Positions 31,505 to 63,829 of a stretch of 64,000 nucleotides of DNA are shown in pieces; the stretch's first letter is position 1, and every line of letters starts with the position of its first letter. A model generated the notes under the pieces. It ran no database searches, was not told the DNA's origin, and saw only the letters and a program-made list of their open reading frames with translations. The stretch is from a virus (lineage: Duplodnaviria; Heunggongvirae; Uroviricota; Caudoviricetes). The position numbers were made by a program, and so were the translations under genes. The stretch lies in the IMG/VR virus record IMGVR_UViG_3300032167_005013. One strand, 5' to 3'.

Positions 31505-31551
31505 GAAAATCGGACAGCATTTTTTTTAACGTTTAACTTAAAAGATTTTCG
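31505..31551 (+). promoter_or_regulatory. stem-ACAGCA RNA element abutting the start codon
   Basis: GAAAATC-GG-ACAGCA...GATTTTC-G; same architecture at 63674 and 63773. Confidence 0.55.
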
Positions 31552-31552
31552 T

Positions 31553-33193
31553 ATGGTAAATCAGTTTGTAAAGGAAACAACCTGCGGAGCAGGTTCGGCG
31601 AGAACATGGAATGGCGCCAGTAGTTATGCAAGCATCGGAACAGCAATGCTTGACCAGTTCGCAAAAGCAGGTTCAGCAAGAGGACGTGCTATTGAAGATG
31701 TGTTTGCTGATATGGGCCGTCTGTGGGCCGAGAACCCCGATTATGCACTTAAGTTCCCGTTCTATCTCAGAATGGTTACAAGAAAGGCCAAGATGTTTGG
31801 CGGTAATGTCACCGATGCAGTACAGCGCGGACAGGGTGTAAGGGATGAGGCTTTCAAGAGACTTCTTTGGCTTGCCCTCTATCAGCCCGATGTATTCTAT
31901 CAGAATCTGTGGGTACTGCCTATTGTTGGCTCATGGAAAGACCTATGGGTTCTTCTCAGTATGTCCGATGACCTGCAGAAGGAACGATTTTTCGAGGTAA
32001 TCGCAAAGGGTATCAACGATGAGTACCATCGTGAACTCGTAAAGAAGTATCTACCACGAATCAGAGCCAACGGAAAGTGTAAGACCGAATGGGCAAAGAA
32101 GAGCAACGCTCTTGCAAAGGAATTCTGTAAGTATGTTGGTTGGGCTCCTAAGGAATATCGTTCATTCAAGTCAACAGGTAAGGCACATGAATTTCAGCGT
32201 GTAATCTGTGGGCGTCTGTATGATGCACTTAATTTCAATACAATCCCGGGAAAGGCGCTTCTTAACCTTGTGTCAGGAGGTTTCCTTGATAACCACAATC
32301 TCACTGAAAAGTATCTTGAGTGGATTAAGTCTCAGCCTGTGGCAAAGTTTGTCGGGTATCCTTATGAACTTGCAGTAAAGGTCGAGGGGAATTTGTGGAC
32401 TCTGCCACTTACAGCCAAGATTACTATTGACAAGCAGTTCGATAATCTCATCAAGACTGCAAAGGAAGATGGTGGTGCCATCAAGGGAAATGTATGGTGC
32501 GCCATGGATAGAAGTGGTTCAATGACCGATAGAGTGAGCAGTGATTCTTATCTTATGGTCAGGACCGTATGTTATGCACTTGGTGTCTATTTCTCAACGC
32601 TGAATGAGGGAGCGTTTCATAAGAATGTCGTGATGTTCGATAATGAGTCAAAGTCGCTTCAACTTCAGGGCGATTTCACCGATATGTATCAGCAGGTATC
32701 TTGTGCTCCAGGTGGAATGGGCTCAACCAATTTCCAGAGCGTGATTGATGAAATGATAAGAATCAGAAAGTCTAAACCTGAAATTCCGGTAAGCGATTTC
32801 CCTGAGACGCTATTGGTGGTTTCCGACATGCAGTTCAACAAGACAGGCAAGTATCCGTGGGACCAGACTGAAGAGGATATCACAACTGAAGAGGATGAAA
32901 AGACCAATTTCGAACTTGCAAAGGCAAAACTTCGTAAGGTATTCCCTGAGGAGTTTGTCGATAACTTTAAGGTCGTATGGTGGCAGGTGAACGCCAAGAC
33001 AACTGATTTCCCTTCCAATATGGACTGTGGAGGAACTTATAACATAAGCGGCTTTGACGGTTCAATAGTATCTTTCCTTCTCGGAGGAGAAACAGTGGTT
33101 GACCCACAGACGGGAGAGAAGAGAGTTGCTACAATGGAGGAGATTATTGATAAGGCCCTGAATCAGGAAGTACTTTCAGTTCTTTCTCTCTAA
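31553..33193 (+). CDS. TROVE/Ro60-like (DUF2828-type) protein with C-terminal vWA domain
   Basis: GQGVRD, GSWKDL, KYLPR, YPYEL, MDRSGSM MIDAS, STNFQSV, VSDMQF, SGFD. Confidence 0.78.
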   Translation: MVNQFVKETTCGAGSARTWNGASSYASIGTAMLDQFAKAGSARGRAIEDVFADMGRLWAENPDYALKFPFYLRMVTRKAKMFGGNVTDAVQRGQGVRDEAFKRLLWLALYQPDVFYQNLWVLPIVGSWKDLWVLLSMSDDLQKERFFEVIAKGINDEYHRELVKKYLPRIRANGKCKTEWAKKSNALAKEFCKYVGWAPKEYRSFKSTGKAHEFQRVICGRLYDALNFNTIPGKALLNLVSGGFLDNHNLTEKYLEWIKSQPVAKFVGYPYELAVKVEGNLWTLPLTAKITIDKQFDNLIKTAKEDGGAIKGNVWCAMDRSGSMTDRVSSDSYLMVRTVCYALGVYFSTLNEGAFHKNVVMFDNESKSLQLQGDFTDMYQQVSCAPGGMGSTNFQSVIDEMIRIRKSKPEIPVSDFPETLLVVSDMQFNKTGKYPWDQTEEDITTEEDEKTNFELAKAKLRKVFPEEFVDNFKVVWWQVNAKTTDFPSNMDCGGTYNISGFDGSIVSFLLGGETVVDPQTGEKRVATMEEIIDKALNQEVLSVLSL

Positions 33194-33262
33194 AAATTAA
33201 AAGAGGTACAAAAACCGGTACCTCTTTTTTGTTTTTCCATTTATTTTCAGTATCTTTACCAC

Positions 33263-33937
33263 ATGATTTCAATTATAGAAAATAAAGAACTTATATATGA
33301 CATTCATCTATATGATGTTATACTTATTGGCACGTCCATCAATAATGCCCTCGGTAATGGCTTCCAATACCAAATAAAGAAATCTTTTCCTGAAGTAGAT
33401 ATTGCTAATAAGAATACACCATATGGCGATATAAGAAAATTAGGTACTGTTCAAATTGTAAAAAAATATGATAAAATATTTTGTCTGTTGTATATAAACA
33501 AAAGCCGCCGGAGGCCCGACCTCTGTCCGGACTATCTCGATTATGATGCGCTTGAATCAACGATGAAAATAATAAACGATAGGTTTTCAGGAAAAAGAAT
33601 CTGTAGCACAATTTTAGGCAACTCAGTATATGAAGGCGAAGGAAATAAAGAACGCATCTTAAACATAATCGAAAACAATTCCGATAATATTGACCTTACA
33701 TTATATGATTATGAACAACCGGATTATGAGGAAGAAAGAAACCGAAGGTGGAAACAAATACAAGAATCAATAGGAAAGGTAAGCCCCGAGGAATATCGGG
33801 AAATGAAAAAAGTTTATTATTGGCAGAATGCGTTCGGTCCGCTTACATGGCCGCCAACAGATATGGGGGAACGCGAAGTACGGGAATTTATTAAACAAAA
33901 CAAGAACAAACCTATTGATATTCCAAAAGAAATATAG
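33263..33937 (+). CDS. macrodomain-like (ADP-ribose-processing) protein
   Basis: NNALGNGFQYQIKKSFPEV..LGT..LYI..DYDAL pattern. Confidence 0.6.
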   Translation: MISIIENKELIYDIHLYDVILIGTSINNALGNGFQYQIKKSFPEVDIANKNTPYGDIRKLGTVQIVKKYDKIFCLLYINKSRRRPDLCPDYLDYDALESTMKIINDRFSGKRICSTILGNSVYEGEGNKERILNIIENNSDNIDLTLYDYEQPDYEEERNRRWKQIQESIGKVSPEEYREMKKVYYWQNAFGPLTWPPTDMGEREVREFIKQNKNKPIDIPKEI

Positions 33938-34030
33938 GTTTTAAGACCAAAACCCTTGAAATATCAATAGATGGAAAATCACAGTACGATGGTAATTTAT
34001 ACAAAATCATACCAAAATTTATAACGAATT

Positions 34031-34777
34031 ATGGAAAAATCACAATACATTGGGATTACAGAAACATCTGACCCTGCATTCCACCTTGATATCTTTAACC
34101 ATTTACATGAAGGGAATATTATCATAACAAAATCCCTTACCAATAAACTGCTTGAAAAACTTGTCGAACATAAAGAACGATGTGTTCTTCATGTGACCTG
34201 CACAGGAATGGGCGGAACTAAGATAGAACCCTTCGTACCTACGGTAGAAAAAACGAGGAAACAACTTAAGAAACTTATTGAAGATGGTTTCCCGGTTTCT
34301 CAGATTGTACTAAGAATCGACCCGATAGTACCAACAAAGAAGGGCCTTGACACAGCAAAAAAAGTATTGACCCTATTCTCAGACCTACATATTCCACGAG
34401 TGAGAATTTCATTCCTTGATATGTATAAGCATGTCAAGGCAAGATTTGATGAACATAACATTCCACTCCCTTATGATTCCTTCCATGCAAGTTCAAAACT
34501 GAGATTCGAAGCTTATGATGAACTGAAGAACCATGCCTTTACATTGGGGTACGGAAAGGTCGTTACATGTGGAGAACCGGGATTCGATGAAACCCCGTGC
34601 ATATCCCAAGAAGATATCAACATTCTCGGACTTGAGAATAAGATTGTTTTGAAAGGAAAGAAAGAACAAAGAACATCCTGCAGTTGCCCGCAAAATAAAA
34701 AAGAACTCATACCATATAAGGAAAGAACAGAACATAAGTGTGGGCACGGTTGCCTCTATTGCTATATGAAAGATTGA
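34031..34777 (+). CDS. DUF1848-like / radical-SAM-related protein
   Basis: LRIDPI; C-terminal CSC..CGHGCLYCY. Confidence 0.6.
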   Translation: MEKSQYIGITETSDPAFHLDIFNHLHEGNIIITKSLTNKLLEKLVEHKERCVLHVTCTGMGGTKIEPFVPTVEKTRKQLKKLIEDGFPVSQIVLRIDPIVPTKKGLDTAKKVLTLFSDLHIPRVRISFLDMYKHVKARFDEHNIPLPYDSFHASSKLRFEAYDELKNHAFTLGYGKVVTCGEPGFDETPCISQEDINILGLENKIVLKGKKEQRTSCSCPQNKKELIPYKERTEHKCGHGCLYCYMKD

Positions 34778-34882
34778 CTATGATGCAAATTAAAGATTAT
34801 CCTAAGTGGAGAAAAGAAAATCCTGAAGCAAAGACGGTGATGGTTGACCATGGAAAATACGAAAAATGTAAAACAAAATTAA

Positions 34883-35302
34883 ATGGACCTTGTGAAATAT
34901 CTTGACAAACTCTTCCAACTTAAAAAGGAGAAAGGATGGGAATATCTTTACATTATGGTGGATGTGCATAATACAATATTAAGACCCACATATACCAAGG
35001 CCGAGATATATGATTTTTTCCCATACGCAAAGTCAGTGTTGAATATATTATCAAAAAGACTTGACGTGAAACTCATCATGTGGAGTTCATCATATCCTGA
35101 TGTGTGTGAGAAATATAGGGAAGGATTCAAGAAATATGATATCGTCTTCGACTACATAAATGAAAATCCGGAGATTAATGACGATTATGTCAGATGCTTT
35201 ATGGAGAAATTCTATTATGACCTCGGCATTGATGATAAATTTGGATTTGATGCAGAAACCGATTGGAAACCGTTGTATGATTATTTAACAAGTAGATTAT
35301 GA
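34883..35302 (+). CDS. HAD-like hydrolase
   Basis: MVDVHNTI, LIMWSS, YINENPE, IDDK. Confidence 0.6.
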   Translation: MDLVKYLDKLFQLKKEKGWEYLYIMVDVHNTILRPTYTKAEIYDFFPYAKSVLNILSKRLDVKLIMWSSSYPDVCEKYREGFKKYDIVFDYINENPEINDDYVRCFMEKFYYDLGIDDKFGFDAETDWKPLYDYLTSRL

Positions 35303-35652
35303 ATGTAGTAAATAATGGAATATCTAACTTCATTAAGAACCACCCTGATGCAGAAATCAATGTGGTTGAAGAAATGCTGTCGTTGTTGAAGAATTTCAAG
35401 GACATTGATGTTGATGACCTTATCGCTTATTATGTGGGTGATGACGATTATCTTGTTCTGCGCCTATATAAAGGAAAGAAAGAGATTAGCGTTATAAAAA
35501 ATCTTACGATAGAAGAGGATGATGATGGGATTACCGACCCTATATATCAGATTATCGGGTGGCATGAAAAAACGGTTAAAACATGTGGCGATTCAGATGA
35601 TATTGAATGTATAGTGAAAGTCGTTACCGATTTTTTAAAAGGTGAGAATTAA
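35299..35652 (+). CDS. hypothetical protein
   Basis: 117-aa ORF. Confidence 0.55.
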   Translation: MNVVNNGISNFIKNHPDAEINVVEEMLSLLKNFKDIDVDDLIAYYVGDDDYLVLRLYKGKKEISVIKNLTIEEDDDGITDPIYQIIGWHEKTVKTCGDSDDIECIVKVVTDFLKGEN

Positions 35653-35697
35653 ACCAATTCTCATCTTTTTCTTATGTAACAGCTGTTTTTTAAACCT

Positions 35698-35808
35698 TAA
35701 AAAATTCCGGAAAAAATTTTTTCATAAACCCTACTTTTTAAATGATGTCAGTCCTAAAAAAAATGTAAAAAATTCCGGAAAAAATTTTTTCATAAACCCT
35801 ACTTTTTA
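35698..35808. repeat. 43-bp direct repeat, 2 copies
   Basis: TAAAAAATTCCGGAAAAAATTTTTTCATAAACCCTACTTTTTA at 35698-35740 and 35766-35808; partial third copy at ~35850. Confidence 0.9.
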
Positions 35809-36052
35809 GGGGTTTTCTTCCCATGGAGTAAGTCTGTGGAAAAACGCGATTTTTCCGGGAAAAATTTTGTCGAAGAACTGTGCGGACTAAAGTGGCATTT
35901 TTACCGGCGGGGGCGTATGGGAGGGGCGTGATGGAGTAGGGGCGGGGGTATATGGTGGGTATATAAAAGAAATTATATATAAAATATATTATACAAAAAA
36001 AGGACTGACATTTTGTCAGTCCACAACAACAATATGAGATATGAAATACAAC

Positions 36053-36397
36053 TTAATCCAAGCAGTTGGGTTCAAGTGTTTCAAGCGTTTCCATTAAGAT
36101 TTCCATATAAGGTAGACGGAAAAGGTTAGTAGTTTCGGGATGCTCATCACATGGGACAAACTTGGTTTCGTTCTCGAATCTGAATTCAATTTCACTAGCA
36201 AAAGCGGGTGAAAGCCTTATGTCCGTGATATTAGTTTGTCTATTATCGACAATAGCAGGGACGGGCTTATTGAAAGTCAGTTCGGTAAGATTATTTTCCA
36301 CCAATACACGATAGATTTCAGTTTCGATTGCGATGGTGAGGTCTGTCATTTTTTCCATAAAGGAGCGGCAGTTCATAATGGTTTGATGTTTCAGCAT
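36053..36397 (-). CDS. hypothetical protein
   Basis: Preceded by a sigma54-like box at 36433-36448 (minus strand). Confidence 0.65.
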   Translation of the reverse strand: MLKHQTIMNCRSFMEKMTDLTIAIETEIYRVLVENNLTELTFNKPVPAIVDNRQTNITDIRLSPAFASEIEFRFENETKFVPCDEHPETTNLFRLPYMEILMETLETLEPNCLD

Positions 36398-36543
36398 GGT
36401 AGTGATGTTTAATTGATTACATCTTCATTTATCGCAAAGTCCGTGCCAAATTCTATCTATTAAGAAAGAATTTATCTTGTATCTTGGAGATAGTTTCCAC
36501 AGCACCCCAAATAAGGAGTGCTATGATTATAGGGTTATTCATA

Positions 36544-36867
36544 TTATTTTACTATACTATAAAGCCCGATTTTGTATTTCATTGTAATGATAACCTGTTT
36601 CAGTGCGTTTTCGATTTCTTTTTCATTTTTAAGAAAAAGCATATCCTTACCAAAGGTTTTGAAAAACGCATCTTGTATTTCTCCGTGCAGTCCGACAAGG
36701 CGGAAATAGTTATCCCTTATAGGGTATTCAAGTTTTGAACAATATATATTGGTAGAGAAAACCCTTACAAACTTTGGCGGGTCGTTTGGTTTGTCCTCTC
36801 TTGTTGCAAGCACTTCAAAGTTAGGAAAGTTTGAAAATCCTTTGTCGTAAGTAATGCGTGTTTCCAT
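36544..36867 (-). CDS. hypothetical protein
   Basis: sigma54-like box at 36903-36918 (minus strand). Confidence 0.65.
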   Translation of the reverse strand: METRITYDKGFSNFPNFEVLATREDKPNDPPKFVRVFSTNIYCSKLEYPIRDNYFRLVGLHGEIQDAFFKTFGKDMLFLKNEKEIENALKQVIITMKYKIGLYSIVK

Positions 36868-36938
36868 ATTCTTTGTTGTTAGTTGTTTACATCTTACTTT
36901 AATGCAAAGACCATGCCAAAGTGGATAGTTTTATATTA

Positions 36939-37280
36939 CTATCCACATATTTTGTTGGTTTGGTTTTCGCTGATAGGAGTTGCATAATCATCAGAGGTGG
37001 TGTAGTTGGTTCTGACCTCAGGAGTGCCCTCATAGTATTGTGTGATGTTATAGTCATTGACTATTTGAGTTATTTCGGTTTCCACCATATCAATACATTG
37101 AGTTGTATTCAAAAGGATATGCCTCCCAAAAATATCAATGATGTCAAGAAAGCCATTTGTATAGGCTTTTTCAAAAGGGTTATCGGTTTTAACGAATATA
37201 ACTCCGTTATTTACTTTTGTGATTTTCCACCCTTTGAAAATTGTTACCTTTGTTGTTGAAGTTGCCTTAATGAAAGCCAT
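36939..37280 (-). CDS. hypothetical protein
   Basis: sigma54-like box at 37317-37332 (minus strand). Confidence 0.65.
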   Translation of the reverse strand: MAFIKATSTTKVTIFKGWKITKVNNGVIFVKTDNPFEKAYTNGFLDIIDIFGRHILLNTTQCIDMVETEITQIVNDYNITQYYEGTPEVRTNYTTSDDYATPISENQTNKICG

Positions 37281-37546
37281 TGTGTTAGTTGTTTAATTGA
37301 TTACATCTTCATTTATTGCAAAGTCTGTGCCATAGATGTTATAATGAGAAAAAAATATATTATAATATAATAATATATGGTATAAAGATTTTTATATATT
37401 GTTATGGTTTGGCATAGATATTGCATAATGTAGGAATGTAGTTCTTTGAGAATAGAGTAAAAAAGTTTTTAATTTTCTATTAGAAAATTAAAGGTTTGGC
37501 ACGATATTCGCATATAGAATAGATGTAAACAACTAACAATAAAGAT

Positions 37547-38062
37547 ATGACAAACATTATTTCAGCACTTGCAAATGCAAAGGGATTTCAGTTCGTGGGA
37601 CTTACTTACGAAAATGAGGTAAAAATGAACAAGACCGGTAATCCGTATTACGGTAGAGTTACCAAGAGGGTCAGCGGTCAGATGTGTTTCAATGGAAACT
37701 ATGAAAATATGGTCAACAACCGCCTTACGAAAGAGGGTGTAGAGTTTGAGTTTGTTGCAGGCAGTCTCCCTTGGGGTCAGTGGGTCGAGGGTTGTGAGAA
37801 TAAAGTAATCGCACATAAGGGAGAGTTTTACATAAGACTTTATCCAACTCCGAACACAAAGATGAAAGTGACTTACTACCTTGATGGTGTGGAGTGTACT
37901 GACACTGACATGAAATATATCACTCCGTTTCTTCCTCAACGAAAGGAATCCGCAAAGCAGGAGAACGCAGGATTGGAGGGAGCAAAGCAGTTACACCCGC
38001 AGAACATTAAGGTCAGCAACATTAAGAAACTGACTATCGGTGGAGCGGAATACATAATGTAG
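37547..38062 (+). CDS. hypothetical phage protein (LPWGQW motif)
   Basis: 171-aa ORF; boxes at 37410 and 37497. Confidence 0.75.
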   Translation: MTNIISALANAKGFQFVGLTYENEVKMNKTGNPYYGRVTKRVSGQMCFNGNYENMVNNRLTKEGVEFEFVAGSLPWGQWVEGCENKVIAHKGEFYIRLYPTPNTKMKVTYYLDGVECTDTDMKYITPFLPQRKESAKQENAGLEGAKQLHPQNIKVSNIKKLTIGGAEYIM

Positions 38063-38183
38063 GTACTCAAAAGAGTATAGGGAGTTGAAAAATACTCCCT
38101 AACTTTTTAAGAGTTTTTAAAACATTGGCATACTTATTGTTATATATAAACATAAGTACATAACCGGATTAAAACCTATTGAC

Positions 38184-38516
38184 ATGAAAGAGACCCTTAC
38201 ATCAATCAGCAACATCAGCAAGAGGATAATGGAAAAGATGGGAGTTAACTCCCGAGCAACAAAAGCCTTTTGGCAAATGGGTAGTGGGGAAAAGGAGAAT
38301 GTAGTATTTTCGCTTATTGATTACAGCGATGAAGATGTTGAAAAGTATTGCCCGTCATTCATCAGCATTGACAATGAAACGCAGGTAATGACATTCTTCT
38401 ATGACGGCATTCCGTATTTCTCAAATAAATTAAGTCTTGTTGACCTCAAGAGGATACGAGCAGGCTTGCTGAAACTTGAACGAAATCGGCATAAGATTGA
38501 ACAGATATTTGACTAA
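38184..38516 (+). CDS. hypothetical protein
   Basis: Box at 38126. Confidence 0.65.
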   Translation: MKETLTSISNISKRIMEKMGVNSRATKAFWQMGSGEKENVVFSLIDYSDEDVEKYCPSFISIDNETQVMTFFYDGIPYFSNKLSLVDLKRIRAGLLKLERNRHKIEQIFD

Positions 38517-38622
38517 ATGAATGGAAGTACTCAAATGAGTACTTCTTTTTTTTTATATATGATATAAGTTTGGCATTGTTTTTGCATTACATAGAAATGT
38601 AATCAAATAATACAAAACAGAT

Positions 38623-38985
38623 ATGAAAAAACAGGACAAACCTACATCAGTCGGCATCATTGAAAGCAGGAATACACATATCCCCCACACGATTTTGCAG
38701 CAAATCAAATATCCAAACCTTGTAATCTTTTTTACTTGGGGTGCAAAGGGTTTTACAATGGGGCAAAGCAATGATGAACGCAAAGAGCCTTGTTTGATGT
38801 TTAAGGTCAGTGGCCGCAAATTTAAGGGATATGTTCATATCTTTTATGATTGGTCAGACTATTATAGGGTTGAATTTGTATCAACACATAGGAATCTGAA
38901 AAAGGTCGTTAATGAAGTCTATTTTGACGAGTTGCAGTCAGTAATTGATGAATATGTTGAAAAATGCGAAGATTATGCCTTTTAA
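38623..38985 (+). CDS. hypothetical phage protein
   Basis: Box at 38571. Confidence 0.7.
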   Translation: MKKQDKPTSVGIIESRNTHIPHTILQQIKYPNLVIFFTWGAKGFTMGQSNDERKEPCLMFKVSGRKFKGYVHIFYDWSDYYRVEFVSTHRNLKKVVNEVYFDELQSVIDEYVEKCEDYAF

Positions 38986-39041
38986 TGGCATAGTCTTTGC
39001 ATATAATAGAAATGTAATATTTCTATTAACTGAAAATTATT

Positions 39042-39296
39042 ATGGCAAAGAAAAAGAGAAAGGGTTTATATAAACTCAACAAAGAAGCCAAAGTGGGAGA
39101 AACAATAGAATGCCCTATCTGTCATACCAAGTTCACTAAAAGGCAGTATTCACAAGCCTTTTGCTCTACAAGGTGCAAGGATAGATTTTGGAACTCCAAG
39201 GGAGACCGACACCGATATGTGGACTATCCCGACAATGACTTTGGCGATAGGGAAATGGATGAAATGTTCGGGGTTGCCGAATATAATGTCGAATAG
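39042..39296 (+). CDS. small zinc-finger protein
   Basis: CPIC...FCSTRC; box at 38986. Confidence 0.65.
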   Translation: MAKKKRKGLYKLNKEAKVGETIECPICHTKFTKRQYSQAFCSTRCKDRFWNSKGDRHRYVDYPDNDFGDREMDEMFGVAEYNVE

Positions 39297-39919: not shown

Positions 39920-40255
39920 ATGGTAACAAAGGAATACATTGAAAAGTTGATTGCAAAGAACAATGCACAACTTAAAACCTATAAGAGCAACTTGGAGGAG
40001 AACTATCTTCATCATTTTGAGTGGCTTGCTGAAAGGATTTTTAAGTTGGAGTGGAAAAACAAGATATTGAATGATATTCTTGTGCTGTTCAATGATGCAA
40101 ATATAAAAGCCGATGATGCAGTTAAGAGGTTAAAAGACCGATTTAGGGATGACCTTATAACAAAAAGGCTTATGCAGTCATCATCAAATCCACTTGCAAA
40201 CCTATCAAGCCTTTGGATAAATGAGTGCAAGCAGGAAATGATTGCAGAACTCTGA
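39920..40255 (+). CDS. hypothetical protein
   Basis: Box at 39869. Confidence 0.65.
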   Translation: MVTKEYIEKLIAKNNAQLKTYKSNLEENYLHHFEWLAERIFKLEWKNKILNDILVLFNDANIKADDAVKRLKDRFRDDLITKRLMQSSSNPLANLSSLWINECKQEMIAEL

Positions 40256-54644: not shown

Positions 54645-54671
54645 AATATAAACCAATTAAAAACCAAGAAC

Positions 54672-55976: not shown

Positions 55977-56033
55977 ACCACTTTGGCACGAAAGTTGCTA
56001 TAATAATAATTGTAAACCAAATAAAAGAAGCTT

Positions 56034-56813
56034 ATGACAAATGAATTTATTACCATGATTTTGGATAGTGCGAGGAACATTGCACATGACAGAAATGGAT
56101 TCTATGAGACACTTAAAAAGAATCTTGAGGGAATGTACGATGATTTCGTTGACGAAGCAAAGAAAAAACAGAAAGAATATGTATATAATCGTATCCTTTC
56201 ATACGATTATCTTCCAACAACCACACTCCTCGACACTTATGTTCTTGGTATTATCGAAACCAAATACGATTTGTTTCAAGGCGTTGATTGGAATGTAATG
56301 GAAGTCCTGTCAGAAATTACAGAGAACGCAACAAACTACTTCGTGGGTAAGTTCGGCCTTAATGAAGTTGAAAAGGCGGTATTCTATCAGTGGCTTGGCA
56401 ATGCAGATGATTATACCAACGAATATACCATCATTGATAATCTTGGATTCCCTCATGGGGACAAGTCGCATCCCGACCTTTATAGGATGTATAAGGAATG
56501 TTTCGGTAAGGATTTCAAGGTAGAGGGAGATGATGATGTAACAGATGATTTCGTTATCACCAATTACCCAAACAGACGCACTGAACTTACCGCAACAATC
56601 AATACCAACTTCGCAATGCTTTTTGCAGTCCTCAACACACATACATATAATGGGGACATGGGAGTTACCATTGAAAGTTGTTCAAGTCCATTGGCTTTGA
56701 AAGAACTTGGATTCTCCGATAGTGAATGTGCGACAATCGCAAAACTTAAGATTGGAGAAAGTTGTATGTCGGAAGACTATGGCAATGGAGTGGTTGTCGT
56801 AAGAATGGCATAA
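56034..56813 (+). CDS. hypothetical protein
   Basis: Box at 55984. Confidence 0.7.
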   Translation: MTNEFITMILDSARNIAHDRNGFYETLKKNLEGMYDDFVDEAKKKQKEYVYNRILSYDYLPTTTLLDTYVLGIIETKYDLFQGVDWNVMEVLSEITENATNYFVGKFGLNEVEKAVFYQWLGNADDYTNEYTIIDNLGFPHGDKSHPDLYRMYKECFGKDFKVEGDDDVTDDFVITNYPNRRTELTATINTNFAMLFAVLNTHTYNGDMGVTIESCSSPLALKELGFSDSECATIAKLKIGESCMSEDYGNGVVVVRMA

Positions 56814-56943
56814 AATAAGGGAAATAAGTACTCAAATGAGTACTTATCCCTTGACAATAAATCAATTCATTGATATATTTATATAGGTAAATTTGGTAAT
56901 TAAAATACTAATTCCTATATTTGCAATATAAATATAACATATT

Positions 56944-57438
56944 ATGACGCAAGAAAATTGCATAGTATTAACCGCTTATAATAAAGGATATCGAGTTGAT
57001 GAATTTGGTAATGTTTGGTTTAATGGTAGGCAACGCAAACTAACGGCAGGAGGTTCCAATCCAAATAGAAAATACTACAAATTTTGCATAAGATTTGATA
57101 ATGGTAAGCCTAAAAATGTAAAAGTTCATAAACTTCAGGCTTATCAAAAATATGGTGAAAAAATGTTTGAAGAAGGTATTGTTGTTCGACATTTGAATGA
57201 TGACCCTCTTGACAATTCTTATGAAAATATAGCAATTGGAACAATATCAGATAATATGTTTGATATGCCCGAAGAAAAACGGAAAAAACTTGCTAAGCAC
57301 GCAACATCATTTCTAATAAAATATGATGCTGAAAAAATAAAAGAATTTTATGAAGAATGCCGTTCATATAAAAAGACTATGGAATATTTTGGTATTCCAT
57401 CACGAGGAACGCTTCATCATATAATTCATAATAGATAA
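56944..57438 (+). CDS. HNH homing endonuclease
   Basis: KVHKL..VVRHLNDDPLDNSYENI..SDN; directly upstream of tRNA-Glu. Confidence 0.8.
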   Translation: MTQENCIVLTAYNKGYRVDEFGNVWFNGRQRKLTAGGSNPNRKYYKFCIRFDNGKPKNVKVHKLQAYQKYGEKMFEEGIVVRHLNDDPLDNSYENIAIGTISDNMFDMPEEKRKKLAKHATSFLIKYDAEKIKEFYEECRSYKKTMEYFGIPSRGTLHHIIHNR

Positions 57439-57442
57439 AAGC

Positions 57443-57517
57443 GGTCGGTTGGTGTAGAAGTTAGCACGATGCCCTTTCACGGCATAGACAGCGGAGCGTT
57501 ACCGCTACCGACTACCA
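57443..57517 (+). tRNA. tRNA-Glu(TTC)
   Basis: Cloverleaf GGTCGGT/ACCGACT; anticodon arm ATGCC-CTTTCAC-GGCAT; encoded CCA; atypical T-loop. Confidence 0.85.
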
Positions 57518-57660
57518 AATAGAGATTCATCTTACATCTGTAATAAGAAGCCCGTGAGGGTGCATAGTGTTTTTAATTTGGTTTTAATCGTGGGTCGGGG
57601 TTATTTTCTCCGACCTTTTTCTTTATTATTTCCCCCTTTATTGTTATTTTAATAAAAAAC

Positions 57661-57936
57661 ATGAAGAAGAGATTTGTAAATGGAACTGATGTTTATGTTC
57701 ACTCCTATAAAGATTATACTGCGGTATTATATTTGAATGAGGAGAATATCATCAATTTTGCTATCGTAAATCCGGAAAACATAACGATTGCAACGGGAGA
57801 TATATTTGATGATAAACACCCTAAAGGCTTGCCAAATACTTCCTATTATAGGAAGAAAATTCAGATGGAACTTGAAGAACTTCTTGAAAATCAAGTTTTC
57901 AATCTTGAAAAAGAAATTACAAATGAGGGAGAATAA
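57661..57936 (+). CDS. hypothetical protein
   Basis: 91-aa ORF. Confidence 0.55.
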   Translation: MKKRFVNGTDVYVHSYKDYTAVLYLNEENIINFAIVNPENITIATGDIFDDKHPKGLPNTSYYRKKIQMELEELLENQVFNLEKEITNEGE

Positions 57937-58011
57937 ATTTCCCTCATTTTTTATTTGTGGCACGGACTTTGCAGTATGGTAGAATTGTAAACCAATATAA
58001 AAACGAATAAT

Positions 58012-58296
58012 ATGGAAAAATCTAAAATGACTTGGGAAGAATACAAGAACTTCAAAGAAGATGGGGACACATCTTACAATGAGTTTGATAAATGCCATGA
58101 TAAAGGCAATGACATTCTGTCAGATATTAGAGAACTCCTTGAAATGGCACAGAATTACAATGTAAATGAAAGTGCTATTGATTGCCTTGATGTGGCACTC
58201 GAAGAAATGCAGAAATTCTGTAATAATATGATGGATTGCAAATGTAATCATTTTGAGGCTTACAAGAAAAGACTTGGCACGATTGTTGAAGTATAA
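58012..58296 (+). CDS. hypothetical protein
   Basis: Box at 57958. Confidence 0.6.
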   Translation: MEKSKMTWEEYKNFKEDGDTSYNEFDKCHDKGNDILSDIRELLEMAQNYNVNESAIDCLDVALEEMQKFCNNMMDCKCNHFEAYKKRLGTIVEV

Positions 58297-58328
58297 TCGA
58301 ATTGTAGAAACCAATTAAAAACAAATAT

Positions 58329-58727
58329 ATGAAACATAAGATTTTATCAGTCTATAATGACTATTACGAAATCAAAGAATTCCTTTTCAAGTACGACTTC
58401 ATATCAGAGGAACAATTCAATGATGATGAATATGACCTATTGGTATGGTTGGAAGGAGATTGTGATAGGATGGATTTTGATGGTAACGAAATCTTTTTTT
58501 CCCATTTCCATTCCGATTATGTATGGGATGGTTGTCAGGTCGTTATCTGTACTGCTGATGGTCGTGATGAACTTGACGAAATCCTTGAATTTTATGAGGG
58601 TGAGAGTTGGGTTATGGTCGATGATGATATAGACATTGATGCGTTTCTTGAAAGCGATGAAGATAAGGTTTTGTATCGTGGTGGGGTAGGACCTGTCTAT
58701 ACGGTATATTGTCGTAAAACCGAATAA
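58329..58727 (+). CDS. highly acidic protein
   Basis: Degenerate box at 58275. Confidence 0.65.
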   Translation: MKHKILSVYNDYYEIKEFLFKYDFISEEQFNDDEYDLLVWLEGDCDRMDFDGNEIFFSHFHSDYVWDGCQVVICTADGRDELDEILEFYEGESWVMVDDDIDIDAFLESDEDKVLYRGGVGPVYTVYCRKTE

Positions 58728-58784
58728 GTTTGGCACGGAACTTGCAGTATAAGAAAATTGTAAACTAATAAAAACATTTCAACT

Positions 58785-59468
58785 ATGTATCTTAAATATC
58801 AAGCGAAAGCACTTTACAGATTGATTGGTAATCGTGTCATTTCTTTTGACCATAAGTCTTATGATGATGCTGAGGATATACCATGTATCATTCACGATGG
58901 CAGAAGAATAAATGTATATTCAGTACAATTTATACACAATGGAGCTGCACTTTGTTGTGAACTTGACGATAAGATTTTGTGCGAGGTAACAATCAAGTTG
59001 GTTAATAATGATTGTGAGATTAGTGATGTTGAATTTGATAGGATTCTCAATATCAAATGTCTTGACCAACTTTTCCACGATATGTACTATGAGACAGATG
59101 AAAGTGGGGATATTGGGGATTATGAACTTGATTTTCTCGAACTTTATCCGGAAAACCTTGAACAATATGAGGGTCTTTCCAAGAACGAAATGCTTGCCGA
59201 CATTGCAAACACAATGAGAAACAATGCCACATCATCTTGGGCGTTTCCTGCCAATACATTCGTGCACCTTAACCTTTGGAATACTCCTACCCTAACAGAC
59301 CTTAGATTCCTCTTCATTAGAGAGTCATCAAGAGTGGATGGAGAAACAATAATTGAACTCTATTCTATTGACGATGAAAGGGATGATGAACAATATACAG
59401 ATAATCTTAAGGATTTTTCTGTTGAGGAAATAAGAACAATATATGCAATTTTCAAGAAGAATTCATAA
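58785..59468 (+). CDS. hypothetical acidic protein
   Basis: Box at 58731. Confidence 0.65.
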   Translation: MYLKYQAKALYRLIGNRVISFDHKSYDDAEDIPCIIHDGRRINVYSVQFIHNGAALCCELDDKILCEVTIKLVNNDCEISDVEFDRILNIKCLDQLFHDMYYETDESGDIGDYELDFLELYPENLEQYEGLSKNEMLADIANTMRNNATSSWAFPANTFVHLNLWNTPTLTDLRFLFIRESSRVDGETIIELYSIDDERDDEQYTDNLKDFSVEEIRTIYAIFKKNS

Positions 59469-59527
59469 GTTTGGCATAGTCCTTGCAATATAGGACTATG
59501 TTTTTAACCAATTAAAAAACCAATAAC

Positions 59528-60088
59528 ATGAAAGATGCAAAAATTAGAGCCATCAGAAGTGCAATAATCGGACTTTCTGATAATTGTGTAAAGAAGATTA
59601 TCGAAAAAGCAGGAACTGACAAGATAAAGGAACTTGCTGAATGTGTCATAGAGAACGGAACGGATAACACCAAACTTTTTAATAGTGTAAGGAGTAAGTT
59701 CATTGACTTTGTTGATGCACACACAACAATCCTCAGAACCAACATTCGTAATGTTGTCATGAATGCGGAAAGGGATTTTGTTGTTGAAGATTGGAATGTC
59801 ATTTTTGCAGACCTTTTCCCGACCACTCCATTGTATGACGATGTGGTATATGCCCTTGTGAGTGAGGTCCATGAGGATTGCACAACTGAGATTGAGACCA
59901 TTCTTTATAAGACTTGGGATAATGCGTTGCTTTCATTCAATGGCTGCAAGAGGGATGCCGAGACTTTCATGGAAAACCATGCTGATGAATATGAGGTGGA
60001 AGTTGATAATGATACCCAATATCAGGCTCAGGATAATTATTGGGAAACATATGTTGATGTCAATATAACCAAGAAAGTACTGTTTTAA
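59528..60088 (+). CDS. hypothetical protein
   Basis: Box at 59472. Confidence 0.65.
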   Translation: MKDAKIRAIRSAIIGLSDNCVKKIIEKAGTDKIKELAECVIENGTDNTKLFNSVRSKFIDFVDAHTTILRTNIRNVVMNAERDFVVEDWNVIFADLFPTTPLYDDVVYALVSEVHEDCTTEIETILYKTWDNALLSFNGCKRDAETFMENHADEYEVEVDNDTQYQAQDNYWETYVDVNITKKVLF

Positions 60089-60111
60089 GGTACTCAAATG
60101 AGTAGGTGCTT

Positions 60112-60588
60112 ATGAGAAAGAAAGATAAAATCGAAAAATATCTTGATAGACTTATCAAACTCCATAATGGACATATGAATGAGTCAACAAACTCAAGGTA
60201 TTATTTCCTAAATGGAAACACAATCAGAGTGTCTGACCATTTTGCAGTGAATAGTCCCTGCGAGGTATCCATAGTCCTTACACAAGATGGTAAGTATGTG
60301 CTGACGAACAGAAAGACACAGACAATAAGATGTATTGAATATAAGGAACTCCTCCAATTCTGCAAGACATTTCATATCACTCATATGCTAACGGGAAAGG
60401 TTGGCTCCTATGAACTTGAAATGGCAAGTATGTCCTCAATCATTTCATCAAAGGACAAGGAGATTAACCAACTGAAATCACAACTCGGGGCTTATAAAAA
60501 TATAAACCCTAATATAATCAAGCAGTACAAGAAACAGATAACTGAATTGACTAATATAGTAAAAAAATATAAGGAGGAAAAAGCATGA
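60112..60588 (+). CDS. hypothetical protein (IRVSDH motif, coiled-coil C-terminus)
   Basis: SRYY..TIRVSDH. Confidence 0.6.
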   Translation: MRKKDKIEKYLDRLIKLHNGHMNESTNSRYYFLNGNTIRVSDHFAVNSPCEVSIVLTQDGKYVLTNRKTQTIRCIEYKELLQFCKTFHITHMLTGKVGSYELEMASMSSIISSKDKEINQLKSQLGAYKNINPNIIKQYKKQITELTNIVKKYKEEKA

Positions 60589-60863
60589 CAACAATAATGT
60601 TTATATTATCTATCGCCCTTTTCGTGGTAGTTATTAGCCTTATACTCCGCATCCAACTCCTAAAGGCTGATGTTGAGTATTATAAGGGTGCATATAAAAT
60701 TGAAAGGAAATACAATGAATCAACCCATGATTCAGTTCAACAACTCGCAGACATTGCAAAAGAAGCAAATAAGAAATGTGGTGAATATCTTAATGCTCTT
60801 AAGTACGCAAACCATTTCCTCCCACCAAGAAAGAGAAAGGAAATGTGGAAATTCATAAAATAA
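60585..60863 (+). CDS. membrane-anchored small protein
   Basis: N-terminal hydrophobic helix. Confidence 0.55.
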   Translation: MTTIMFILSIALFVVVISLILRIQLLKADVEYYKGAYKIERKYNESTHDSVQQLADIAKEANKKCGEYLNALKYANHFLPPRKRKEMWKFIK

Positions 60864-60922
60864 GTACTCTTTTGAGTACATAATAGCATGATTCTTGTAG
60901 TATAATAAAAACATAATAATAT

Positions 60923-61213
60923 ATGAAAGAAAATCGTTATCCGGCCATAAGTTCATTTGATGAGATGATGGCTATCATAAAGAAAGATAAGAAAGGTGAT
61001 GAACTCGTTGTGGTTGCGGGGGCATCAACAAGAAACGATATTATCTTCAACCTACTTACTGAAGAGGATTGGAAAGTAGGTGACTCATGGGCAAATTCAT
61101 CAAAAACCAATAGGTGTTACCTTTTTGAAAACAAGAACATCACAGTTTCCATCAATAACGGTGACGACGATATCTACGAGGACATTGTCATTAACTTTAA
61201 TAATGTAGCATAA
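60923..61213 (+). CDS. hypothetical protein
   Basis: 96-aa ORF. Confidence 0.55.
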   Translation: MKENRYPAISSFDEMMAIIKKDKKGDELVVVAGASTRNDIIFNLLTEEDWKVGDSWANSSKTNRCYLFENKNITVSINNGDDDIYEDIVINFNNVA

Positions 61214-61214
61214 C

Positions 61215-61661
61215 ATGAGCACAAGAGGAAACATCGCAATTAAACTCTCCGTATCAGACAGAGAGGGGACCCTGAAGTACAACCCTGATTTTACTCCGCA
61301 GTCCCGTGTCAATGCAAACAAGTTTGACACAGTAGAGCCGCTTGGCAAACCATACCTGCAGATATATTGCCATCATGATAGTTATCCATCACACCTTGGC
61401 AAGATGCTGTTGAATCATTATAATGATTATGAAAAAGCACTTAACCTTATCCTCGCAGGAGATACAAGCGGCGTTGGTGAGAATGGAACCGATGCTTATG
61501 CAAGATATGATTATTGGGATGATGTGAAGCCTGAAATCATCGATGAACCTTATCAGGATGAACAGTATCTATATGTATATGAAGATAACCAATGGTTCAT
61601 TCAAGGAGGAGAATATCCGGTTCTTACACCACTTACAGAAGAGATAATCAATAACAAATAG
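61215..61661 (+). CDS. conserved phage protein (MSTR..IYCHHDSYP family)
   Basis: Motif recurrent in large-phage hypothetical proteins. Confidence 0.65.
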   Translation: MSTRGNIAIKLSVSDREGTLKYNPDFTPQSRVNANKFDTVEPLGKPYLQIYCHHDSYPSHLGKMLLNHYNDYEKALNLILAGDTSGVGENGTDAYARYDYWDDVKPEIIDEPYQDEQYLYVYEDNQWFIQGGEYPVLTPLTEEIINNK

Positions 61662-62062
61662 AAAAACATATGAAATGGTTCTTTTATATATTTGCTTTCC
61701 TATTAAGTTTGTTCATACCCATTGAATATCTGTGTACATCGATTTATTTGATGCTTATTGGCGTCATTTTACACCTCTCGGAAATTAAGGAACGTATCGA
61801 TACAATGGAAATAAATCTTCAAAAAGACCATCGATATATTAAAAACGATATCAAAAATTTGACTATTAAAAAATAAATTGCTATCTTTGCAAATATAGGG
61901 CCTGATATGTGTCTATATTGGCCCTGCAAGAGGCCTCCTTGGAATAGATGAACAGTGGGCTATCGTGAGGTGAGGGCGCTGCGATGGAAAAACCAAAGGG
62001 CTTGACACGGCTCAGAGATTGAAAGGTTTCAAGTATCGTGCTTTTTATTCAGTCTCATTTAC

Positions 62063-62150
62063 GGAGGGTAAACTCAGGATGGCTTGAGAACTCCCTGCTA
62101 AGCAGATTGTGCGTCCAAAAACGCATGTGGGTCGGGACCACTGCCCTCCG
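62063..62150 (+). tRNA. tRNA-Ser(GCT), atypical
   Basis: GGAGGGT/GCCCTCC acceptor, CTGCTAA loop, long variable arm TGCGT..ACGCA; imperfect anticodon stem. Confidence 0.65.
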
Positions 62151-62235
62151 CATAGTAGTACTTTATTAAATATTTTTGGTTCCAAACATACTTTTTCCGT
62201 TAATAAGATATTTATTAATAGAAAAGAATTAGAAT

Positions 62236-63078
62236 ATGAAAATTGATATAAGTACTTATGAAAAACAAGTAGAGGTTTATGCTCTTTTCGATAGTTTTAA
62301 AAAAATTGGAGACATATATGATTATTATGGATTATCTGATAATGCAATTAATTCAAAAAAAATAAAAAAAATTGCAGAAGAAATCAATTTTGATTTAGAT
62401 ATCTATAAAGAAAGAAGACACCCAAAACATTATTGTTTAGAATGTGGGAAAGAGTTAAAAAGAGGACAAAAAAAATTTTGTAGTAATTCATGCTCAACAA
62501 CTTACAATAACAAATTAAATGGTCCTAAAAGTGAAGAAACAAGAAAAAAAATTAGCGAAACATTAAAAAATAAAACTTCGAAAGACAAAAAGATAACTTA
62601 TTGCGAAGTTTGCGGAAAAGAAATAAATGGAAACAAAAAGTTTTGTTCAATAGAATGTAGAAAAACAAAATATAAAAAACACTTTATTGAAATTACATGT
62701 GAAGAATGTGGTAAGAGTTTTGAAGGTTTAACTGGGAGAAAATTTTGTTCAATTAAATGTGCAAATGAACATTTTAAAAAGAAACGTATCGAACAATTTA
62801 TTAATGGAGAATATGCCAACAATGGTAATTTAACCCTCCCTAAAAATATAAGAGAGTTTTTATTCGAAAAAAATGATTATAAATGTGAATTATGTGGATA
62901 TGAAGGGTATAATGTAAGAACAGGAAATACAATACTTCAAATTCATCATATAGATGGAAACTCTAAAAATAATAAAATAGAAAATTTACAAGTGATTTGC
63001 CCTAATTGTCATGCTAAAACAGAAAATTATATGGCTTTAAATAAAGGTAAATCGGGAAGAGATAAGAGATATAAATAA
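62236..63078 (+). CDS. HNH endonuclease with repeated CxxC...FCSxxC zinc fingers
   Basis: LQIHHIDGNSKNNKIENLQVICPNCH. Confidence 0.85.
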   Translation: MKIDISTYEKQVEVYALFDSFKKIGDIYDYYGLSDNAINSKKIKKIAEEINFDLDIYKERRHPKHYCLECGKELKRGQKKFCSNSCSTTYNNKLNGPKSEETRKKISETLKNKTSKDKKITYCEVCGKEINGNKKFCSIECRKTKYKKHFIEITCEECGKSFEGLTGRKFCSIKCANEHFKKKRIEQFINGEYANNGNLTLPKNIREFLFEKNDYKCELCGYEGYNVRTGNTILQIHHIDGNSKNNKIENLQVICPNCHAKTENYMALNKGKSGRDKRYK

Positions 63079-63117
63079 GTACTCAATTGAGTACCCTATT
63101 ATAATGAATATTATTAT

Positions 63118-63513
63118 ATGAGGAACGTAGATATTTCAACACTTAAAGATAAAGTTATTAAAGAAATCAGAGGTCTTGAACCCGGTAGTGAAGAAATCAC
63201 ATTCATCACTACAGATGGATACAAATATATAATGTTTCATAGCCAAGACTGCTGTGAATCGGTTTCAGTTGACGACGTTGTTGGTGATGTTGAATGCCTA
63301 CTGAATACACCTATTCAAATTGCAGAGGAAAGAGTATCTTCAGATGAGCCACCTTCGGTATCTAAATGGGTAGATTTTTCATATACTTGGACTTTCTATA
63401 CACTTGCTACAGTGAAAGGATATGTGGATATCAAATGGTTTGGCACATCCAATGGATACTATAGTGAAAGTGTAGATTTCCTTGAATTGGAACCTCAATG
63501 CTTTTATAATTAA
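63118..63513 (+). CDS. conserved phage protein (HSQDCCESV..SNGYYSE family)
   Basis: Motif pattern. Confidence 0.7.
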   Translation: MRNVDISTLKDKVIKEIRGLEPGSEEITFITTDGYKYIMFHSQDCCESVSVDDVVGDVECLLNTPIQIAEERVSSDEPPSVSKWVDFSYTWTFYTLATVKGYVDIKWFGTSNGYYSESVDFLELEPQCFYN

Positions 63514-63578
63514 TTTTTGGTTATATAATATATTTTCATTATATTTGCAATGACATAAAACGGTTTAACCTTGGTAAC

Positions 63579-63649
63579 GCTCAGGGACATTATATTAGAG
63601 CTATAAGCTTTCTAAACTTATGGACAGTGGTTGAAATCCACTCTGAGGT
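63579..63649 (+). tRNA. degenerate tRNA, possibly Arg(TCT)
   Basis: ATAAG..CTTAT arm with TTTCTAA loop; GTGG-TTGAAAT-CCAC T-arm; weak D-arm; no CCA. Confidence 0.35.
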
Positions 63650-63666
63650 CAATGACCGTAAAAAAT

Positions 63667-63743
63667 ACTGCTGAGAAAACGTACAGCAAATTATTAGCAA
63701 TGGACTTTTAATCTATCAGGCTTGTTTTCTGACACAAAGCAGT
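63667..63743 (+). ncRNA. stem-ACAGCA RNA carrying a tRNA-Lys(UUU)-like anticodon arm
   Basis: AGAAAAC-GT-ACAGCA...GTTTTCT-G; inner ATGGA-CTTTTAA-TCTAT; outer ACTGCT/AGCAGT. Confidence 0.6.
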
Positions 63744-63772
63744 TAAAATATGACTCAACCTGGCAAGGTTTA

Positions 63773-63829
63773 AGGAAACACACAGCAAAATTATGTTTAT
63801 TAATTATGATGCAATTAAACTGTTTCCTG
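63773..63829 (+). ncRNA. stem-ACAGCA RNA, second copy in the tRNA cluster
   Basis: AGGAAAC-AC-ACAGCA...GTTTCCT-G; inner TTAATT-ATGATGC-AATTAA hairpin. Confidence 0.55.

Follow-up and report, generated by a model that had tools for sequence, protein, structure and literature searches.

A family of small phage RNAs tied to a Ro60-like protein gene and enriched in tRNA-like hairpins

A 64,000-nucleotide (nt) stretch of virus DNA (Caudoviricetes; IMG/VR record IMGVR_UViG_3300032167_005013), analysed here in full and called the window, contains three short elements built around the motif ACAGCA which, by sequence comparison, belong to a widespread phage family of small RNAs that we call handle RNAs. 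The family is tied to the gene of a Ro60-like protein of 546 amino acids (aa). In the window, copy 1 lies in the leader of this gene, and copies 2 and 3 are free-standing (Table 1). Free-standing members of the family are enriched in tRNA-like hairpins, and copy 2 carries a hairpin that reads as the anticodon arm of tRNA-Lys(UUU). We consider it likely that RNA and protein form a Ro/Y-like particle, in which the handle is bound by the ring-shaped protein, tRNA-like cargo is loaded through the free copies and feedback on the synthesis of the protein comes from the leader copy.

Handle elements in the window and in other phages

An earlier note, made by a reading of the letters alone, had described three elements of one architecture with co-varying stems, and the sequence bears out both the elements and their positions. 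Each consists of a 7-base-pair (bp) stem strand, 2 nt, the motif ACAGCA(A), an insert of 24–35 nt, the complementary strand and a G, with total lengths of 47 nt (copy 1), 58 nt (copy 2) and 57 nt (copy 3); copies 2 and 3 are 42 nt apart. The 24-nt insert of copy 1 is A/U-rich and has no hairpin, and the element is followed by T31552 and then by the ATG at 31553, so that it ends 1 nt before the start codon. ACAGCA occurs 34 times on the two strands of the window, and in four of these cases a perfect 7-bp Watson–Crick closure is found 10–80 nt downstream, compared with 0.285 expected (Poisson P ~2e-4). The fourth closure (40010–40097, minus strand) was considered as a further member of the family and rejected, as it lies inside an open reading frame (ORF), has no covariance-model match and is probably due to chance. 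With filters off, the covariance model R1 gave exactly three matches in the window, at 45.6 bits (copy 3), 44.3 bits (copy 2) and 37.3 bits (copy 1), the next-best score being 15.3 bits. Neither ARAGORN nor the Rfam tRNA cloverleaf model (RF00005) called any of the three copies, and an Rfam scan of the window elements gave no match at the Rfam thresholds.

A profile of 26 homologues of the 546-aa ORF (55–66% identical) led to 50 IMG/VR loci, eight of which have a leader copy (L119, L122–L125, L143, L153 and L155). The stems of these copies differ yet stay complementary, for example AGAAAAC/GTTTTCT, AGAAATT/AATTTCT and AGAATT/AATTCT. Tandem arrays of 3–5 copies, always on the strand of the gene, are present just downstream (L156/L157, L161) or upstream (L166) of it. 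R1 was built from 22 aligned copies, and its search of 516 kb found only the known copies plus L155. An exact-peptide search of IMG/VR for close relatives of the protein had returned no match, whereas the alignment-based search succeeded; a DNA-level search of the gene region against cultured phages also gave no match, and a loose DNA-pattern scan of IMG/VR yielded more than 111 stretches, mostly uninformative.

By tblastn, homologues of the 546-aa protein with 21–31% identity are found in 674 cultured phage records, including Felix O1, KVP40, A511/P100 and biocontrol phages of Enterococcus and Staphylococcus. Counting the R1 matches directly beside the gene and on its strand, five copies fill the spacer downstream of the gene in Leptolyngbya phage Lbo-JY46, and downstream copies number four in Salmonella phage FO1a (Felix O1-like), three in Staphylococcus phage 6ec and one, a weak match, in mycobacteriophage Silverleaf. 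Upstream of the gene there are four copies in Enterococcus phage EfV12-phi1 and three in Listeria phage A511, the latter at 33–300 nt; Campylobacter phage NCTC12673 has two between its tRNAs and the gene, and KVP40 has one in the leader of the gene. The covariance-model search of related phages that had been suggested for the three elements found further copies both in IMG/VR relatives, which are rumen-type jumbo phages, and in nine lineages of cultured phages.

In an alignment of 41 matches outside the training set, ACAGCA is present in every one (41/41), the A that follows it is missing from one (40/41) and the 3' G from two (39/41), and all seven pairs of the helix change on both sides, as in a real RNA family. 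The consensus handle is a 7-bp stem, usually AG.../...CU, followed by two free bases, then ACAGCAA as a single strand, a 3' side rich in A and, beyond the stem, a G.

Two of the arrays have features of their own. In EfV12-phi1 (locus L188, 4200–4800), a conserved module of ~50 nt with the layout AAAA(C)GGTTTTG...ATAG(C/T)TC...hairpin...CAT precedes each of the four handle RNAs; it could serve in transcription, as a promoter, or in processing, and have been repeated along with the RNA genes. The dense array of L161 (5670–6350) includes a long copy (5808–5924) with a T-arm-like hairpin and is followed by an apparent tRNA-Lys(UUU) 5' half (D arm and loop CUUUUAA) without a 3' half.

Linkage of the handle RNA to the gene

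The handle RNA family is tied to the Ro60-like gene. All ten genome-size records with the gene also have the RNA, including five in which the gene has no leader copy, in line with the co-occurrence with a DUF2828/TROVE-like gene that the earlier note had put up for examination. A blind set of four records was chosen via an unrelated protein, the DUF7448 neighbour of the RNA cluster: three of them, all relatives of each other, carry the RNA together with the gene, and the fourth carries neither. The loci reached via this neighbour were not syntenic for the RNA cluster.

A protein that folds like Ro60

The 546-aa protein matches Pfam DUF7788 (4e-17), with DUF2828 below the cut-off, and phrog_850, annotated 'RNA-binding protein' (3e-51). 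In the AlphaFold model (predicted local distance difference test, pLDDT, 78.6; predicted template-modelling score, pTM, 0.78) a ring of helical repeats is closed by a vWA domain with the MIDAS (metal ion-dependent adhesion site) motif, which is the arrangement of the Ro60/TROVE fold. The MIDAS residues (DxSxS...T...D) are invariant among homologues, namely D319-x-S321-x-S323, T392 and D425. In a Foldseek search of the PDB, the top 13 matches are all Ro60/TROVE proteins (E 3e-10 to 3e-5) and include Ro60 of Thermus phage phiLo, Xenopus and human Ro60 and Deinococcus Rsr; full-length alignments to 9kop, 9l5y, 1yvr and 2nvo have template-modelling (TM) scores of 0.33–0.54. At the sequence level, Pfam TROVE (PF05731) gave no match, the 26-homologue profile found nothing at E ≤10 among PDB sequences, and a protein-atlas search returned only the same DUF families. 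As modelled, the protein is a Ro60-shaped DUF2828/DUF7788 paralogue and not a recognised TROVE member, and the TROVE/DUF2828-like identity first given to it agrees with this fold.

tRNA-like cargo of the free-standing copies

In whole-genome records the free-standing copies lie inside tRNA arrays. For copies 2 and 3, which the earlier note placed among tRNA genes, this is only loosely so: tRNA-Met follows on the 3' side and a degenerate tRNA-like element precedes on the 5' side, and the only other tRNA of the window, Glu, is 6 kb away. The Lys(UUU) anticodon-arm-like hairpin described in copy 2 is present, and its loop and pairing, as read from the DNA, make it a mimic of the tRNA-Lys(UUU) anticodon arm. 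The hairpin with loop ATGATGC described in copy 3 also exists, but we rejected it as an anticodon mimic: its pairs are A-U only, a second hairpin that overlaps it competes with it, and it does not resemble an anticodon arm.

Anticodon-arm-like hairpins (5-bp stem and 7-nt loop, Y-U-NNN-R-N) occur in 17/51 free-standing copies, compared with 2.1 expected from dinucleotide shuffles, with the qualification that ~5 of the 17 are counted because T arms match this loop pattern as well; T-arm-like hairpins occur in 9/51 free-standing copies, compared with 0.03 expected. Leader copies have neither (0/10). The loop CUUUUAA is found on a different stem each time in copy 2, in the related jumbo phages G002 and G004 and twice in Lbo-JY46, and a sixth copy has the loop CUCUUAA. 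Related jumbo phages also have orthologues of copy 2 with the same cargo. CUUUUAA is the exact loop of genuine tRNA-Lys(UUU) genes in four related phages. Other cargos resemble Pro, Asp, Phe, Ile or Cys anticodon arms, Lys being the commonest. Judging by these loops and stems, anticodon-arm mimicry is a recurrent and statistically enriched trait of the family, of which Lys-UUU is the commonest form.

Bacterial Y RNA tethers PNPase (polynucleotide phosphorylase) to Rsr. By analogy, the handle would let the free copies bring their variable cargo to the ring, and the Lys(UUU) arm of copy 2 could bring a tRNA-recognising factor, such as a nuclease or an enzyme of repair, modification or charging, to the protein. 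Copies 2 and 3 would be transcribed together with the tRNA-like cluster from their own predicted promoter.

The cargo might serve a narrower purpose, as a decoy or bait for anticodon nucleases of tRNA-Lys(UUU) (PrrC, RloC or PARIS-type) or as a surrogate substrate that holds RlaP or phosphatases on the ring. This proposal concerns what the cargo does and is compatible with the particle model; we regard it as possible but doubtful. It would account for the exact CUUUUAA loop in four phages on different stems and for the predominance of Lys among the cargos. For RlaP, a role in putting back bases that cut anticodon loops have lost has been predicted (PMC7824862), and in the window the gene is flanked by RlaP, HAD_SAK_2 and phosphatase genes, while in Listeria phage A511 an RtcB ligase lies 1.3 kb from the homologue. 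However, neither RlaP nor HAD_SAK_2 is kept next to the gene in the relatives (50 loci), and we rejected a conserved RNA-repair operon around it. The only recurring neighbour is the phrog_335 phosphatase, found by tblastn ≤4 kb from the gene in 21/50 related loci; a DUF1848 gene also adjoins the 546-aa gene in the window. Moreover, the cargos include Pro, Asp, Phe, Ile and Cys arms, T arms and whole tRNA-like domains, and such a hairpin is missing from many copies; the larger ORFs of the window yielded no RNA ligase, and no nuclease is known for the host of this phage. Known anticodon nucleases read modified bases, which a bare anticodon arm would not have.

Leader copy and the start codon

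The position of copy 1 beside the start codon, pointed out from the start, is conserved in relatives. In the lineage of the window, a promoter-like box lies 9–18 nt before the stem and the 3' G lies 0–6 nt before the ATG, a spacing shared by the window, L119–L125, L143 and L153; in L155 the loop contains the ATG, and codons 3–5 hold the 3' strand. The position recurs in KVP40-like phages, where the stem takes in the start codon: the leader of KVP40, nt-1, VS1 and K571 reads GACAT-NN-ACAGCAA ... GAGGAA ... ATGTC, with the Shine-Dalgarno box inside the loop and the ATG in the 3' strand. Considering that two unrelated phage groups have a cargo-less handle on the initiation region of the gene, the arrangement has the layout of a translational operator. 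The placement is consistent with translational feedback and is not proof of it.

Translational operators include the hairpin of MS2 coat protein and replicase, the targets of T4 RegA and gp32, and ribosomal-protein leaders. In these systems a copy of the ligand lies on or against the start codon of the protein's own or target mRNA and surplus protein blocks initiation. Copy 1, at the 5' end of the mRNA for the Ro60-like protein, would most likely act in the same way, with surplus protein binding it and blocking initiation. Unlike those operators, the leader stem is weak and A-U rich, is present in only part of the gene family and is known from sequence alone. A separate recurrent element, (A)GTTTAAC followed by an A-run, is found in leaders of the gene with or without a handle and may be a second leader signal (window 31532–31543; L118, L123–L125, L129, L149 and L153, at −40 to −10 from the ATG).

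Alternatively, copy 1 could be a small RNA gene or a 5' stabiliser that is co-transcribed and cut off the mRNA, rather than a regulator, which we think rather improbable. The upstream tandem arrays of A511, NCTC12673, EfV12-phi1 and L166 are plainly separate RNAs, and processing has a precedent in YrlA and YrlB, which are released from an rsr precursor in Mycobacterium smegmatis (PMC4201824). The promoter-like box 9–18 nt before the stem would also put the handle at the very 5' end of the predicted transcript. Against removal from the mRNA, leader copies are uniformly cargo-less and hold a fixed position relative to the start codon, and if the RNA were cut behind the G, only 1 nt of leader would remain on the mRNA. 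Release is also precluded in L155 and the KVP40 group, where the element extends into the coding region and its removal would destroy the mRNA.

Weighing the explanations

The handle is a putative binding site, most likely of the Ro60-like protein, with which it would form a Ro/Y-RNA-like particle. Purified virions of the P100-like Listeria phage CKA15 contain its homologue of the protein, CKA15_055, in abundance (20 peptides, 57% coverage), and three extremely highly transcribed unannotated regions lie ≤2 kb upstream of CKA15_055 on the same strand, for which the authors suggested Y RNAs (PMC12282133).

Several observations weigh against this explanation or limit it. The single-sequence folding energies of the copies do not differ significantly from those of shuffles (z −0.4 to −1.3); support for the family is comparative. 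The helix is 100% paired in the 41 non-training matches, a percentage that is inflated because the matches were picked or fitted for pairing by the model; in the alignment, the real signal is the varied stems around an invariant motif, and only this covariation is informative. Of five records from the loose pattern scan, one has both gene and RNA, one complete genome has neither, and three have the RNA without a detectable gene; these three are only 30–82% complete and decide nothing, because in these jumbo phages the distance between the gene and the free RNAs can amount to tens or hundreds of kb. A leader copy is absent from many relatives of the gene, so feedback through the leader cannot be general, and the leader stem of the KVP40 group is only 5 bp long and invariant among the four close relatives. 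To these points we add the non-conserved RlaP and HAD_SAK_2 neighbours. Finally, the CKA15 regions and the A511 copies belong to different phages and are likened by position relative to the gene, their coordinates not having been matched.

It is very unlikely that the handle is read by another factor, such as RNase P, RNase Z or the CCA-adding enzyme, and that its linkage to the gene reflects shared residence in regions of tRNA and RNA metabolism. A 7-bp stem with one unpaired purine does resemble an acceptor stem with a discriminator-like G, YrlA of M. smegmatis, whose stem also has 7 bp, is a substrate of RNase P to which CCA is added (PMC4201824), and tRNA arrays are where free-standing copies reside. 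Nevertheless, the invariant single-stranded ACAGCAA has no counterpart in tRNA, copies adjoin the gene in phages whose tRNA array lies elsewhere or is missing from the locus (6ec, Lbo-JY46, L156 and L161), and leader copies would be left unexplained. Decay of tRNA genes or chance hairpins in A/T-rich spacer DNA, suggested by the A/T-rich, thermodynamically weak folds and the adjoining degenerate tRNA-like element, has next to no probability, as it is already contradicted by the aligned sequences, with four closures compared with 0.29 expected and an invariant motif with covarying stems in phages whose hosts are of Bacteroidota type, cyanobacteria, Firmicutes, enterobacteria, Campylobacter and Vibrio.

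Comparison with known RNAs

The particle explanation draws on Y RNAs, and the likeness to them is partial. Like the handle RNAs, YrlA/YrlB (RF02553; PMC4201824) and Yrl1/Yrl2 of phiLo (PMC12135203) are small RNAs beside a gene of Ro60 fold, on the same strand and often in tandem, and in Y RNAs of the YrlA type the 5' and 3' ends pair as a closing stem while the distal part mimics tRNA. The Ro60 of phiLo binds Y-like RNAs encoded upstream of its gene (PMC12135203). Adjacency to a Ro60 (TROVE + vWA) gene was also found here, since copy 1 abuts the gene and members flank homologues in all lineages examined, with the caveat that the gene is a DUF2828/DUF7788 paralogue and not Pfam TROVE. Two copies of EfV12-phi1 have a domain with matches to the T-arm, acceptor-like stem and D-arm of Rfam YrlA (45.2 and 34.3 bits); the handle closes this domain and occupies the position of the YrlA Ro-binding stem, which suggests that the family works like a Y RNA. 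Silverleaf scored 39.8 bits, and all three scores are below the threshold of 69.

The window copies themselves fail the comparison with Rfam YrlA that the earlier note had in mind: there is no match to RF02553 in the window at the gathering score (69 bits), nor at E ≤10 around the elements. Instead of the bulged Ro-binding helix with a CGAA-type motif (defined in PMC12135203), they have an uninterrupted 7-bp helix with ACAGCAA, and instead of a tRNA-like domain with T-arm and D-arm they have at most one tRNA arm, although other members of the family do have T arms or a full tRNA-like domain. A copy inside the gene's own leader is a further difference from YrlA. Because of the failed Rfam test, 'Y-RNA-like' describes a possible way of working and not family membership. 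In the literature on DUF2828/DUF7788 we found no description of this RNA or of such a protein–RNA pair.

In Rfam, the nearest match of sequence and structure is to the Class I RNAs of Dictyostelium (RF01414; PMC7919456), with the consensus GaUcuC-CUU-ACAGCAA...AAAAA...GagAuC-UG. They are alike in size, in the short end-joining stem with an ACAGCAA-containing motif directly after its 5' strand, in the variable A/U-rich remainder and A-rich 3' side, and in the end ...CUG. The window copies have the short end stem, the motif after the 5' strand, the variable remainder and a length within 42–65 nt; of the 11-nt Class I motif, they share only the ACAGCAA core. None of them reaches the RF01414 gathering score of 41.5 bits, copy 2 scoring 14.1 bits and copies 1 and 3 not being reported, and the copies of Lbo-JY46 come closer, with 39.3, 30.7 and 26.2 bits against the same threshold. 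Class I RNAs differ in being dispersed multi-copy eukaryotic genes with a Dictyostelium upstream sequence element (DUSE) promoter ~60 nt upstream and in having a 6-bp stem with a 3-nt spacer, whereas the phage genes lie behind a TAnnTTTG-type box or in a tRNA cluster. They have been reported as unique to Dictyostelia, with an unknown mechanism, and bind Rnp1A, a protein with an RNA-recognition motif (RRM) (PMC7919456); DDB_G0281243, a protein of unknown function, was pulled down with DdR-21, which is a Class I RNA (bioRxiv 10.1101/2020.04.05.026054).

A much wider proposal, which we consider speculative and unlikely, would join the phage handle RNAs and the Dictyostelium Class I RNAs into one ancient family of partners of DUF2828-type Ro60 paralogues, from phages to eukaryotes. 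The particle of this phage would then be modular: the leader handle would check the amount of the ring, the free RNAs would present pieces of tRNA, and the Lys(UUU) arm would intercept host anticodon nucleases or direct repair after them.

Other features of the window

The features around the gene and the RNA cluster are collected in Table 1. TAnnTTTG is the −7 motif of Bacteroidota promoters, and the TATATTTGCA boxes, which are also found before other genes of the window, are promoter-like by this analogy, hence putative promoters. The degenerate tRNA-like element has an outer stem ACGGU/ACCGU, an acceptor-like stem CUCAGGG/CUCUGAG, a T-arm-like hairpin GUGG-UUGAAAU-CCAC and a loop UUUCUAA (UCU); it has neither a D arm nor an ACAGCA handle, and its fold has a z of −1.45.

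Table 1. Handle elements, the Ro60-like gene and nearby features, in window coordinates
Feature	Position	Strand	Details and basis
RlaP-family nucleotidyltransferase (RNA-repair associated)	29578–30768	+	Pfam RlaP 7e-16; phrog_388
HAD_SAK_2 phosphatase-like domain protein (RNA-repair associated)	30969–31454	+	Pfam PF18143 3e-25
Promoter-like box TATATTTGCA before leader copy	31480–31489	+	Bacteroidota-type −7 motif TAnnTTTG, read from sequence
Copy 1 (leader handle)	31505–31551	+	GAAAATC 31505–31511, GG, ACAGCA 31514–31519, GATTTTC 31544–31550, G31551
Gene of 546-aa Ro60-like protein (TROVE-like helical ring + vWA, as predicted)	31553–33193	+	Pfam, PHROGs, AlphaFold, Foldseek
phrog_335 'phosphatase'	33263–33937	+	PHROGs
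Promoter-like box TATATTTGCA before small-RNA cluster	63540–63549	+	read from sequence
Degenerate tRNA-like element	about 63560–63659	+	Rfam tRNA 17.2 bits, below 29-bit threshold; no ARAGORN call
Copy 2 (free-standing handle RNA)	63674–63731	+	AGAAAAC-GT-ACAGCA ... GTTTTCT-G
Cargo hairpin of copy 2	63700–63716	+	ATGGA-CUUUUAA-UCUAU; 5-bp stem, 7-nt loop, set on 3-bp AGC/GCU helix
Copy 3 (free-standing handle RNA)	63773–63829	+	AGGAAAC-AC-ACAGCA ... GTTTCCT-G; cargo is an A-U-only hairpin
GTACTC-N4-GAGTAC hairpin, end of RNA cluster before tRNA-Met	63838–63854	+	one of ~11 window copies
tRNA-Met(CAU), downstream neighbour of RNA cluster	63863–63937	+	ARAGORN; Rfam tRNA 57.1 bits

The palindromic hairpin (A/G)GTACTC-N4-GAGTAC(C/T) at the end of the cluster recurs at ~11 sites within 38526–63854, mostly after gene ends (sites include 38526, 48116, 56827, 60863, 63078 and 63838). 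The pattern GTACTC-N4-GAGTAC has 21 strand-wise matches in the window, compared with 0.02 expected, and its probable role is that of a terminator or processing hairpin specific to the phage. An HNH endonuclease gene with several zinc-ribbon or PLATZ-like modules (62236–63078, plus strand) lies directly upstream of the RNA cluster and the DUF7448 gene; homing endonucleases are often located in phage tRNA regions.

Elsewhere in the window, a gene at 1064–1867 (plus strand) combines an inorganic-pyrophosphatase-like domain (InPase) with a domain of Tad6, a type I Thoeris inhibitor, and is likely an anti-defence gene. An IS1595-family transposase (DDE_Tnp_IS1595 and zinc ribbon; 4863–5810, minus strand) lies inside the phage genome. 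A DNA methylase with an intein-like insertion (18808–20565, plus strand) and a full-length Hsp70/DnaK homologue (24114–25949, plus strand) are typical of the gene content of jumbo phages.

Implications

Animals, some bacteria and a few phages are known to have Ro60–Y RNA particles, with a single type of RNA handle in each case. The handle described here is a second one and accompanies a large, uncharacterised family of Ro60-like proteins annotated only as 'RNA-binding protein' or DUF2828, and the handle RNAs offer a testable ligand for this DUF2828-type family. The family may explain the very abundant unannotated RNAs of the P100-like Listeria phage, and the finding of the homologue in CKA15 virions would mean that virus particles deliver the Ro60-like protein or have it adhering to them. 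It also presents a candidate class of protein partners for the Class I RNAs of Dictyostelium, the function of which has been an open question since 2004. The leader copy is a simple case of possible feedback that can be tested with a reporter. More broadly, the variable cargo suggests a plug-in system that would display parts of tRNAs, with relevance to tRNA-cutting defences and the counter-measures of phages.

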